A stretch of 28,488 nt of DNA from a virus (taxonomy: Duplodnaviria > Heunggongvirae > Uroviricota > Caudoviricetes), in IMG/VR virus record IMGVR_UViG_2609460354_000008, positions 1 to 28,488 of that record; one strand, written 5' to 3'. The translations under genes and the position numbers were made by a program. Shown one piece after another: positions 2,963-28,090 of this stretch (position 1 is its first letter; every line of letters begins with the position of its first letter). The notes under the pieces are model-generated. The model did not search any database. It was not told where the DNA came from and saw only the letters and a program-made list of their open reading frames with translations.

Positions 2963-3717
2963 TATGCGGCCCTCACGATATAGTTAAATGCAATATTACG
3001 CGGACGAAGTTCTGGTGATACCGGAGTCGAACCGCTGACATTAAACGTGTAATCAAACACGGAACCTGATCCAGATGAAGTAGATAAAGTTTCAGCATTT
3101 TTACTTTTTGCTACAGAAACACCACCTAAACCATTTGTTTGTTTAACAGCAAAAAGACCATTAAACGTTCCTGAAATAGACGGCATACCATGAGATTGCG
3201 CAGTGAGAATCCCCCTGCCACTATCAACGCCTCTTCCATCATCCCAGCCACGCATAAACTCACCACGTAAATCAGGCAATTTATTTGTCGGGTAAGCCTT
3301 TGCCAGTTCTGGGTATTCTTCAGCAGAAAAAGCCGCACCATTGCATTTCAGCCAGCCTGTTGGCGGAGTGGCTGCAGGCCACGGAACAGGCACACCAACG
3401 GGTAACGCCGAACCTTCTCCCAAACCAAGGTTTTCGAGAGCCGTTTTCACCGTGCCGTCCGATTTGATATCGCCAAACGGATTTTTGCGGCTTAACAGCA
3501 GCGCACGAAGCGCGGTAAGCAACTGGTCGTGCCGCCCTTTCTCCAGGCTGGCACCGGAGGCCTCCACAACGCTGCAAAGCTCCTCCTGCAACATGTCAAA
3601 GTAGTCATTATCCAGATCGGTGGCAGGTGTGCCGGTCTGGGGGTTACCACGGGTAAAACCGTTCTTACCCGCGCCGAACTTATCCTTCTGCGCGGTTTTC
3701 GTGTCTATACGATGCAT
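2962..3717 (-). CDS. Tail fibre protein with tail-collar domain; constant N-terminal part (about aa 1-96) outside the invertible segment, variable C-terminal part inside
   Basis: 251 aa; [20 protein letters not shown]...[14 protein letters not shown] matches the phage tail-collar domain; the crossover site lies inside the ORF. Confidence 0.8.
3414..3433. repeat. Right crossover site of the invertible segment (inverted copy of 1483-1502); plus strand reads CCAAACCAAGGTTTTCG around an AA centre, hix/gix-like
   Basis: Reverse complement GAAAACCTTGGTTTGGGAGAAG shares the 15-nt core with the left site. Confidence 0.6.
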
Positions 3718-23089: not shown

Positions 23090-23370
23090 TTCGCTTCCTT
23101 AGCAGTCCGATAAGTACTGTCTGCTCATCCAACCTAACGAATGTAGATCAGAATGACAAGTCTTTCGCGCTAATTTCAATTTGATATCTGTTCGTAAACA
23201 TGATGGCGCGAAATATTACGCATGAAGTGCTTCTACATCAACATAAAAGTTACTTTTTTTGTGTTCACAGCATGTAAAGTAAAAGCCCCGCACGATGGCG
23301 AGGCTGTTAATTCTTTGTCGACCAACAAAGCTATGGCGACGATATCAGATTTACATGAAATATAAGCGTT

Positions 23371-24060
23371 TCAGTTCGGTTTTGCAAGACTTACGTGCGA
23401 ACTTGTCGCCTTTTGTTGTGAACGTGATCGCGTTACTGAGATAAGCGCACCGCTATCGAGTCGCATAAAGCAGCTACGCATTGCCAACCAGTGAGGCAGG
23501 TATGTCTCTGTCCAGGTGGATTTCGCCACGCCAACCAGTTCCGCCAGCTTCTGGTATTCGTAGGCATCTTTCCCGACCAACCCTGCTTTGACATCCTGCG
23601 CTGCCAGCCATATCAGCTTCTTCAGGCGCTCCATGGTCTTGCCTGCCACCCTCTTCGCGCCGAGATACCCCCTGAATTCAGACCACGCCCACTGGGTGAT
23701 CGCCACCTGGTATTCAAAGCTGACGTTTTCACTGTAACTCCACAGCAACCACGCTTTCTGATGTTCTTCGAGAGACAGAACCGCGCGGCGCCATGAAGAT
23801 GTTGAGAACTCAACCTGGCTGACCAGTGCAATGGATGAACCTTTTGCGTACGACTGCTTACCGGAAATCGGCGGATTATCCAGCGTAATCATCTTGCCCG
23901 TTACCTCATCCAGAATGCGCGGCTTCTTTCGTTTATATGTACCAGTATCAAATTGTGCATGCTCCAGCCAGGCTTCAAGCTGGCCTTTCGTTGCTCCGCT
24001 CAAATCAGCAGTAGCCACAATGAGTTGCTCGCGGACATACTGTAAATATTGGGTATTCAT
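23371..24060 (-). CDS. Putative late-gene antiterminator Q (long Q-type); assignment by position
   Basis: 229 aa; translationally coupled to ylcG (ATGA overlap), downstream of rusA and upstream of the lysis cassette. Confidence 0.45.
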   Translation of the reverse strand: MNTQYLQYVREQLIVATADLSGATKGQLEAWLEHAQFDTGTYKRKKPRILDEVTGKMITLDNPPISGKQSYAKGSSIALVSQVEFSTSSWRRAVLSLEEHQKAWLLWSYSENVSFEYQVAITQWAWSEFRGYLGAKRVAGKTMERLKKLIWLAAQDVKAGLVGKDAYEYQKLAELVGVAKSTWTETYLPHWLAMRSCFMRLDSGALISVTRSRSQQKATSSHVSLAKPN

Positions 24061-25461: not shown

Positions 25462-25682
25462 GCTTCACCTCCGCAGAGGTCAAACGCTGGATGCAAAGAA
25501 TCGCAGGTACATTTCTGCATCTGTGAAGGGAGAAGAGAGTTTGGATTGTGTGTGCGCATAAACGTCCCCGTTTAGCGCAGAAGTCACCGGAGGTGTTCAA
25601 ACTCCAGTGACTTAATTATGACAAGTTGATTATTGAAAATCAAAAGTCATTTAAACAATAATGATACCCAGCAAGAGATTTC

Positions 25683-26084
25683 TTATTTTAACTCATAGAT
25701 CAGACAGTCAACGATTTCTAAACCATTTACCATAGAATTAGAAACCCGAACTTTACCATCGTTGACTCTAGCAAATCCTTTTAACATTTTATAAACAAAA
25801 GCTGAATCCCCCTTAGCCTCAATTGCTTCTAATGGTATCGGCTTATACTTTTTTGATATGCTATTTCTATTTATCTCACTGATTTTTCTATATATTTCTG
25901 CCGGTCCACGTTCTGAGAAGTCACTGATAACTAAAATATATCTCCAAGATAGATCTGGGTAATAAAACCACATTGCAGCATCAATAGTTAAATTCTGTAA
26001 CTTGAGTTTTTTTAACAAAAATTGACCTGAGAATTCCATATCTTTTGTCAACTCTCTGCCGATTACCAGTGTGCTTTTACCCAT
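25683..26084 (-). CDS. Unknown 133-aa protein, downstream partner of the HEPN gene (overlaps it by 22 nt); no recognisable nucleotidyltransferase motif
   Basis: GGAG RBS about 8 nt upstream of the ATG, inside the HEPN gene 3' end; low-GC island. Confidence 0.55.
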   Translation of the reverse strand: MGKSTLVIGRELTKDMEFSGQFLLKKLKLQNLTIDAAMWFYYPDLSWRYILVISDFSERGPAEIYRKISEINRNSISKKYKPIPLEAIEAKGDSAFVYKMLKGFARVNDGKVRVSNSMVNGLEIVDCLIYELK

Positions 26085-26479
26085 TTCAAAACTCCAGAAT
26101 TTTGGTCACCTACAGCATCAAACAATTGTTCGGCCATAGCTTTACTTATGTTATTGTCGTATCTAAATTGCTCGCTCCAGTCTTTAACGACCGACCAGTT
26201 AATCTCCAACGAAACATCATTTTTTGCGTCAGCAATCAAAATTTGATGTAAGTTGGCAATTTTGAGAAGTTGCGACAAATCATGAGTATATGAATCATTT
26301 ACGACTTTTTTGTTTGGAAACTCATGTTGTAAAAATGACTTGGCAATACAGGCCTTCAATGCACATTCAACTGCATACCCACAAAGATAATATGCACCAT
26401 GAAAAAAGCCATGATCAAGCAAGCATTTGGCCTCATTAAGCCTAGTGTCAGATAATGCTTCAAGGTCGTTTTTATTCAT
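26063..26479 (-). CDS. HEPN-domain protein (138 aa), first gene of a two-gene AT-rich module
   Basis: HEPN hallmarks read by eye: helix GFFHGAYYLCGYAVECALKACIAK, THDLSQLL, and C-terminal EQFRYDN; canonical Rx4-6H not evident. Confidence 0.55.
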   Translation of the reverse strand: MNKNDLEALSDTRLNEAKCLLDHGFFHGAYYLCGYAVECALKACIAKSFLQHEFPNKKVVNDSYTHDLSQLLKIANLHQILIADAKNDVSLEINWSVVKDWSEQFRYDNNISKAMAEQLFDAVGDQNSGVLKWVKAHW

Positions 26480-26778
26480 ACAATTATAACTTGAATTATG
26501 CTAATTTTTATGATCATACCCTTATCAGGTATGATGTAGGAACTGAAAACAATATTGGATATCATTTTCGGTATTTCTCTGCAAATTCCAGCCCACCGGA
26601 TCTCGGTGTACAATCTGTCGCTGTTCGCGCAAATTTAGGGTCAATCACTTCATTTTTTGCATCAAACCCTCACTAACATCGAGCGATTATTGTGCAAGTA
26701 GTGTTCTTGACTTCTCATTAAACCGTCAGCATTCAATTAATTACAAAATACTAGCGGCATTTCTCTCCCGCAACTTTA

Positions 26779-27444
26779 TTACAGCCGTTCAGAACGTAAA
26801 TGCGTCAATACTCGACTCCACTTATCATCCTGCCACGGCCGGAATTTTACATGTGCCGTTTCTCTGGCAAGGATTTCGCGCGCCTTATGTAGTATCTGGG
26901 GATATTCTTGCTCGATGGAAGCAAAGCGACCGGCTTCGCGGTGCTCCGCAACCTGAAGAAGTAGAGTAACATTCTGGCAGGCGGTTAACATCACATCCCC
27001 TGCTCGCCATAACCAAGCAAGTGTGCAAAGTTCGTTATCAGTGAATTGTTTTATGATTGGGGATTGTTGAACTTCTCGATCGAGAATATCCAGAACCCAA
27101 CGGCGGAACTCTTTGGCTACAGGAGTGCGGGCGAACATGGCGATCAAATGGGCTCCGCGGAGAGAGAAAACGCGTACTTTCTTCTTCAAGTTTCGAGTAC
27201 TTTTCGAGGTACTCAGATCAAGTACCTCGACATCATTCTCTGAGGTACTGACTTCAAGCACTCTAGTCATACTACTGGAAAATTCGTCAGCATATTTGTT
27301 GTAAATCATCGTGACTGCGCGACTATTCGAATACTTCAGTGCTCTTGCTAGGTTGGATGAAGTTAGCCATATTCCGGCAATATTTGCCACTGGCACTAGT
27401 GCTTCACCTTGGAAGTTCAGATCTGATGTTGCTACAATACTCAT
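26779..27444 (-). CDS. Bro-N domain antirepressor-like protein (start set at Met28, AAGGAA RBS; alternative start at 27525)
   Basis: N-terminal Bro-N-like pattern (LNFQGEALVPVANIAGIW...FSLRGAHLIAMFARTPVAKEFRRWVLDILDREV); downstream of the Arc-like gene. Confidence 0.55.
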   Translation of the reverse strand: MSIVATSDLNFQGEALVPVANIAGIWLTSSNLARALKYSNSRAVTMIYNKYADEFSSSMTRVLEVSTSENDVEVLDLSTSKSTRNLKKKVRVFSLRGAHLIAMFARTPVAKEFRRWVLDILDREVQQSPIIKQFTDNELCTLAWLWRAGDVMLTACQNVTLLLQVAEHREAGRFASIEQEYPQILHKAREILARETAHVKFRPWQDDKWSRVLTHLRSERL

Positions 27445-27514
27445 GTCGATATTTCCTTCGCGGTTATTTTCGATAGAAGCCCCTAAGGTTGCCGCCAGTG
27501 GGGCTTCGCTGTTT

Positions 27515-27673
27515 CTAGCGAGCATGTATCCGTGCTCTAAATTTCAATGCCCATACAAGCGCCTGAACAATAGCTGCGTTCTCAGACATCCCTTCCTCCT
27601 GAGCAATTCGCTTGAATTCATCCTTCACTTTTTGCGGATAGCGAAGGGTAATTTTTACCTCTTTCTTTTCCAT
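27515..27673 (-). CDS. Arc-like ribbon-helix-helix repressor (52 aa)
   Basis: MEKKEVKITLRYPQKVKDEFKRIAQEEGMSENAAIVQALVWAL has the RHH beta-strand/helix pattern; GAGG RBS; divergent from the Mnt-like gene. Confidence 0.55.
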   Translation of the reverse strand: MEKKEVKITLRYPQKVKDEFKRIAQEEGMSENAAIVQALVWALKFRARIHAR

Positions 27674-27772
27674 TGACATAACCTCATGAGGCCACAATGA
27701 CACCATGAGGCCATAATGCCACCATTGAATTGATGTGGCAATATGGCACCATTCATTTTTTTGGGGGTTCCA

Positions 27773-28090
27773 ATGGCTGACAAACAAGTAAAAGACTACG
27801 ATAAGTTTAACCTCCGTTTCCCTGATGGGATGCGTGAAGCTATAGCTGAACGAGCCAAACGAAACGGGCGCTCAATGAATTCAGAAATCATTCAAATACT
27901 CCAAGATGCCATAGAAGGAAGTTCTGAACTATCTAAACGTTTAAATTTAGTTGGGTTTATTCGAGGTGACAGAGAGATACGTGACCTGGAAGATAATGCA
28001 AGCAAACTTGCGTTGTATATCGATCATAGAACACAAGAGTTTAAACAAATTTTATTGGAAGATTTAAAATTACTCCTTAATCATGATTAA
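27773..28090 (+). CDS. Mnt/Arc-family ribbon-helix-helix repressor (Mnt-like, 105 aa)
   Basis: FNLRFPDGMREAIAERAKRNGRSMNSEIIQILQDAI aligns with P22 Mnt (FNFRMP...ANGRSMNSELLQIVQDAL) and Arc; GGGGG RBS before the ATG. Confidence 0.7.
   Translation: MADKQVKDYDKFNLRFPDGMREAIAERAKRNGRSMNSEIIQILQDAIEGSSELSKRLNLVGFIRGDREIRDLEDNASKLALYIDHRTQEFKQILLEDLKLLLNHD

Follow-up and report, generated by a model that had tools for sequence, protein, structure and literature searches.

The symmetric sequences upstream of the HEPN-domain gene of this lambdoid prophage are best explained as an accidental dyad in an ordinary cargo-cassette promoter. The stretch analysed, referred to as the window, comprises the 28,488 nts of IMG/VR record IMGVR_UViG_2609460354_000008, and the observation made in it is real and statistically marginal. 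The region had been read in a first-pass annotation as a promoter overlapped by operators, through which the operon would be repressed by its own product. The promoter part of this reading is retained, while the operator and autorepression part is not. With a probability of about 0.7, the region would be a sigma-70-type promoter carried by a low-GC prophage cargo cassette, and both the palindrome and the inverted repeat would be by-products of one base change.

The HEPN-domain gene (138 aa) is encoded on the minus strand at 26063..26479, and the coding-strand sequence ending at its start codon reads ...GTTCCTACATCATACCTGATAAGGGTATGATCATAAAAATTAGCATAATTCAAGTTATAATTGT-ATG. Read on the plus strand, a perfect 10-bp palindrome, TATGATCATA, occupies positions 26509-26518, and a perfect 8-bp inverted repeat extends over 26513-26535, with the arms ATCATACC (26513-26520) and GGTATGAT (26528-26535) complementary at 8/8 positions and separated by an N7 gap. 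Both elements were found exactly where the first-pass annotation had placed them, 30-56 nts 5′ of the minus-strand HEPN start (26479), and its distances and its three TATAAT-like hexamers were likewise recovered when the minus strand was read, namely TATGAT (26518..26513), CATAAT (26500..26495) and TATAAT (26488..26483). On this strand, the arm at 26535..26528 falls within the spacer of the putative promoter, while the arm at 26520..26513 consists of GG and the -10 hexamer. In addition, TATGATCATA includes both a GATC (Dam) sequence and a TGATCA site, the GATC overlapping the putative -10.

The cassette that carries the HEPN gene is present at ~97-98% DNA identity in roughly 190 complete E. 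coli genomes, and more diverged enterobacterial lineages, in which HEPN is 74-85% identical, were taken from assemblies and viral contigs. An alignment of 330 nts around the start codon (alignment A3) covers 11 diverged enterobacterial lineages with HEPN 74-100% identical. In these 11 lineages, the upstream sequences are unrelated until ~65 nts before the ATG, where non-coding homology starts. From there on, the shared order is TTTCAG-TTACAAC, a variable 18-nt spacer, TATAAT, a conserved leader (…AACATAATTCAAGCTAG…) and the ATG. TATAAT is the best-conserved non-coding block across the 11 lineages and lies at a fixed distance from the ATG, while the spacer and the flanks vary. Within the hexamer, columns T263, A264, T265, A267 and T268 of the alignment are invariant and A266 is kept in at least 90%, with the window as the sole exception. 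By its place in this alignment, the TATGAT of the window is the homologue of the conserved TATAAT with a lineage-private A-to-G change at 26515.

The HEPN gene is followed on the minus strand by a partner gene (133 aa, 25683..26084), which overlaps it by 22 nts and falls in no Pfam family. Together with 267 nts of upstream sequence, the two genes form a low-GC cargo cassette, or moron, at 25648..26746 (minus strand), as delimited by homology breakpoints and the GC profile. Homology to phage PhiR5_1 breaks at 25647 and 26747, with a different gene filling the gap in that phage, and the GC content is 30-39% in 25648-26746 against about 50% in the flanks, which contain nin genes. It is because of these breakpoints and of the GC deviation that the HEPN pair and its 267 nts are considered a cargo cassette in a variable lambdoid-prophage slot. 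In PhiR5_1 (locus L129, 2081-2804), a gene for a 168-aa hypothetical protein lies between the ant-like gene and ninB, and such alternative cargo in related phages suggests that this slot of the nin region is a hotspot for cargo or defence genes. In Klebsiella and metagenome loci the cassette runs counter to the adjacent genes, and in Acinetobacter it sits next to unrelated chromosomal genes.

The same-strand genes upstream of HEPN encode an Arc-like protein (about 27678..27515, minus strand) and then an antirepressor-like protein with Bro-N and P22AR_C domains (the ant-like gene, 27525..26779, minus strand), and a divergent gene encodes an Arc/Mnt-like protein of 115 aa (27743-28090, plus strand). 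This gene set, at 26779-28090, resembles the P22 immI region adjoining the nin region. Direct repeats of CATGAGGCCAYAATG(A/C)CAC in the intergenic sequence at ~27680-27742 look like operators for the Arc-like and Arc/Mnt-like RHH proteins. The genes downstream of the cassette are ninB, ninE, rusA and a Q-like gene. Directly downstream of the Q-like antiterminator gene (23371..24060), in the position of the late-promoter leader transcript, the window has a full-length match to the Rfam family isrJ, an Hfq-binding sRNA (23282-23355, minus strand; 64.9 bits, E 5e-10). A strong 12-bp hairpin, AAGUCACUGGAG...CUCCGGUGACUU, is present between the partner gene and ninB (25581-25613, minus strand) and lacks a U-tract, and a 229-nt stretch around it folds far better than shuffles (z = -6.3). 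As it lies in sequence shared with PhiR5_1, where homology extends up to 25647, this hairpin belongs to the phage backbone, and it is possibly a tR2-like signal.

The cassette would be served by a minus-strand promoter composed of a -35-like TTCCTA (26542..26537), an 18-nt spacer and the -10 hexamer TATGAT (26518..26513), which has the A at position 2 and the T at position 6 and for which the ten other aligned lineages have TATAAT. The -35-like hexamer, 18 nts 5′ of the -10, is weak, with 3/6 consensus matches, and is replaced by TTACAA in most other lineages. The conservation pattern, the limits of the cassette and the folds of the two proteins are results of the analysis, and from them and the sequence we infer promoter activity, the start site and the lack of operator function. 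From the spacing to the -10, transcription is predicted to start near 26506 (± 2 nts), which would give a leader of ~27 nts (26480..26506, minus strand) that includes the conserved block CATAATTCAAG (26500..26490) and is devoid of a Shine-Dalgarno sequence.

Such a promoter core would travel with the two-gene cassette of HEPN and its MNT-like partner, whose insertion site in the lambdoid prophage is flanked by the ant-like gene and ninB, and would allow the cassette to be expressed from a repressed prophage. Since all neighbouring genes share its strand in the window, read-through from the early rightward operon would also be possible there. The points against a promoter are the poor -35, the fact that a consensus promoter scan made no call at the site and the presence of two further -10-like hexamers nearer the ATG, one of which, CATAAT, is partly conserved among the aligned lineages. 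The first two are also what one would expect if the region contained no functional element and the pair were transcribed by read-through only, TATAAT being conserved for other reasons such as RNA-level or translational signals. This alternative agrees with the window, in which the arc-like gene, Q and every gene in between are encoded on one strand, and with some Klebsiella loci in which an upstream ORF abuts the HEPN start. However, it is considered unlikely, given that a perfect TATAAT is kept at a fixed distance from the ATG while the flanks diverge, that the 5′ boundary of cross-lineage homology, at TTTCAG, falls just upstream of the -35 position, and that the cassette is elsewhere reversed. 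Because of this opposite orientation to its neighbours, the cassette needs a promoter of its own. Hence a cassette-borne promoter is supported by conservation, through the fixed hexamer, the homology edge by the -35 and the cassettes found reversed or apart from phage genes, and the earlier assignment of a promoter region is upheld by the alignment of TATGAT with the otherwise invariant TATAAT of ten other diverged lineages.

The cassette can also be compared with moron promoters, which serve lambdoid cargo genes equipped with their own promoter and often with a terminator. The likeness extends to the low GC content, the location between conserved genes, the swapping of cargo in a relative, the conserved -10-like TATAAT at the 5′ edge of the cassette and the reversal of the cassette elsewhere. 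It differs from them in that its putative promoter has a weak -35, and in that the hairpin after the partner gene has no U-tract, leaving no clear intrinsic terminator.

Two further observations concern this region. In the leader, CATAATTCAAG (26490-26500, minus strand) is complementary over 7 nts to CTTGAA(T/G) in HEPN codons 6-8 (26458-26464). The pairing, which is weak (-1.7 kcal/mol), would place the start codon inside a loop, and its base pairs are kept in 9-11 of the 11 lineages, almost without covariation; it may act in translational control or may represent nothing more than a conserved leader. In E. coli UTME-10 (locus L002, NZ_CP157104.1, ~3141-3184; ~26520 in the window), an IS3-family element is inserted between the putative -35 and -10. 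The element is co-oriented with HEPN and leaves the -10 cut off from its native upstream sequence. The junction at ~26520 was considered as a mosaic boundary and this was rejected, as it corresponds to the IS insertion.

Both symmetries depend on the base at 26515, where the single A-to-G change creates the palindrome and completes the inverted repeat. With an A at this position, the palindrome becomes TATAATCATA, symmetric at 8/10 positions, and the inverted repeat of the E. coli lineage pairs at 7/8. Hence, the substitution at the fourth position of the hexamer would have turned TATAATCATA into TATGATCATA and completed the pairing with a non-conserved part of the spacer. It would probably weaken the promoter slightly at most, since of the six hexamer positions the fourth matters least.

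The G was seen in none of the relatives that were read. Among the IMG/VR copies of the same lineage, the A is found in 14/15, the copy L125 reads TATAAA, and the G occurs in 0/15. The A is also present in 3/3 metagenome contigs, from a scan with R at the variant position that returned only A, and in 9/9 further contigs encoding an identical protein, some of them with different upstream genes. None of the viral contigs searched matched the G form exactly, and exact matches to an 88-nt stretch were found in 0/186 complete E. coli genomes. At the palindrome site, nearly all relatives have TATAATCATA and one has TATAAACATA. The other lineages have neither the CATA following the hexamer nor the ATCATACC arm, and the inverted repeat is likewise absent from them. 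Some 80 distant loci from many phyla, which are too diverged for footprinting, had no shared upstream repeat or motif by inspection.

The symmetry of the window is modestly unusual, and because the feature was picked by eye its rarity is a post-hoc test that is suggestive at most. Perfect palindromes of at least 10 bp occur 31 times in the 28.5-kb window, or ~1 per kb, near the 4^-5 expectation, and perfect 8-bp inverted repeats with a loop of at most 12 nts are found at 10 distinct places. When the 100 nts upstream of the ATG were shuffled with dinucleotides preserved, 20% of the shuffles had a 10-bp palindrome and 4.5% an 8-bp inverted repeat, and the two arose together in 1.2%. A second copy of either motif, which would be the sign of a regulon, was sought across the window and none was found. 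For each lineage, the 75 nts upstream were also scanned for their best 8-nt inverted repeat, which was compared with shuffles. The window gave a value of 0.029 and the other ten lineages gave 0.26-0.95, with their best repeat sitting at inconsistent positions.

The two encoded proteins bear on whether either could act as a repressor. The HEPN product is a helical bundle in a high-confidence model, and HEPN is the sole Pfam domain found in the pair. The partner has an alpha/beta NTase-like fold, also in a high-confidence model, with a weak likeness to minimal nucleotidyltransferases. No HTH, RHH or other DNA-binding fold was found in either product with Pfam and the structure models. Across 32 aligned homologues of HEPN, R106-Y107 is invariant and no H lies 4-6 residues downstream, so that the Rx4-6H RNase motif is missing. 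The NTase motif of canonical MNT proteins, GSx(9-13)DxD, appears to be absent from the partner, the fold of which is only weakly MNT-like. HEPN lies upstream of the partner here and in every related locus in which the partner was detected or called, and this HEPN-then-partner linkage is detectable by tblastn in 38/83 loci from many phyla.

The pair shares the HEPN fold with the HEPN-MNT systems (HepT/MntA, type VII), such as Shewanella SO_3166/SO_3165, and the predicted fold of its partner is weakly MNT-like. It differs from the canonical type VII arrangement, in which MNT is upstream of HEPN, in its reversed gene order, in the lack of the Rx4-6H motif and in the apparent lack of the NTase motif. 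Judged from the models, the pair is HEPN/MNT-like in fold only. As a compact two-gene cassette, it is distributed across many bacterial phyla and one archaeal MAG (L005-L083). The HEPN protein matches the PADLOC candidate PDC-M28A weakly (1.8e-7) and the partner matches nothing. No matches were obtained in a PDB sequence search with both protein profiles, nothing significant was returned by Foldseek with the partner model against the PDB, and literature searches on PDC-M28 and the two RefSeq protein accessions found nothing.

The proposal that the palindrome and the inverted repeat are operators for autorepression by the operon product or its complex, in the style of type II toxin-antitoxin systems, is judged quite unlikely. 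Its appeal lies in the repeat spanning the spacer and the -10, a classic position to occlude RNA polymerase. In this respect the window is alike to autoregulated type II toxin-antitoxin promoters, in which the antitoxin (e.g., MqsA) binds palindromes at the -10 and -35. The repeat is also rare in shuffles (about 3-4.5%), 7/8 of its positions still pair in the E. coli lineage, and the partner is modelled with a weak MNT-like fold.

A precedent exists in Shewanella oneidensis, where a promoter fragment of 296 nts was shifted by the MNT antitoxin, although no DNA-binding domain is predicted in this protein (PMC4621449). That promoter has palindromes close to the -10 and -35, which were not shown to be the binding site, and deletion of the operon increased promoter activity just 1.6-fold (PMC4621449). 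Autoregulation by such a HEPN/MNT-like pair is thus conceivable, but the Shewanella precedent is weak.

One point against the autorepression proposed by the first-pass annotation is that perfect symmetry needs the one G at 26515. No compensating or alternative repeat is found in the ten other lineages (protein identity 74-100%), and an above-chance inverted repeat exists in the window only, with its second arm in the non-conserved spacer. Unlike in the type II promoters, the symmetry is not conserved and neither product has a recognisable DNA-binding domain, and the pair departs from canonical HEPN/MNT systems in gene order and motifs. Judged by these sequence comparisons, the palindrome most likely does not serve as a binding site for a repressor.

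Two readings give the G itself a function. In the first, the G at 26515 would not be neutral, the dyad and the GATC together turning a constitutive promoter into a switch that responds either to Dam methylation or to the MNT-like partner, the latter as reported for the MNT antitoxin of Shewanella. If true, this lineage would exemplify an operator born from a single substitution, and we regard it as very improbable. In the second, placing a GATC in the -10 would confer Dam-methylation sensitivity on this promoter copy, or would have created a newly evolved binding site. Dam-sensitive promoters with a GATC in the -10 are known, as for pIN of IS10, and the GATC of TATGATCATA does overlap the putative -10. 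However, the variant is present in a single sequence only, has no sign of selection and may equally well stem from drift or from an error in sequencing, which leaves this second reading with a very slim chance of being correct.

It is hardly credible that the inverted repeat acts as an RNA hairpin at which read-through transcripts from upstream would be terminated or processed since, although its 8-bp stem is present in the minimum-free-energy fold, the fold z-score is -1.15 with 21/200 shuffles folding as well, no U-tract follows the repeat, no terminator is called by the scan and the repeat is not conserved. Rfam searches of the whole window at the gathering threshold, and of 26300-26900 at E<=1, returned nothing relevant to the region. 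Two further candidates were tried and rejected. A Fur box was matched by eye at ~9-10/19 positions, and an Arc/Mnt operator was dismissed as the region has no likeness to the repeated CATGAGGCCAYAATG motifs of the arc/mnt-like intergenic region.

The interpretation of the region as the promoter of a cargo cassette matters little past annotation, where it assigns a likely promoter to a prophage HEPN cassette that is uncharacterised and very widespread. The extent of this spread can be appreciated from the exact protein, which is indexed in >10,000 blocks of the assembly collection. The case also calls for caution, in that symmetry around an AT-rich -10 in a single sequence is weak evidence of regulation until relatives are checked. 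It is the biology of the cassette that appears more worthwhile, with a HEPN protein devoid of the Rx4-6H motif next to a partner of degenerate NTase-like fold, the former matching a PADLOC candidate weakly.
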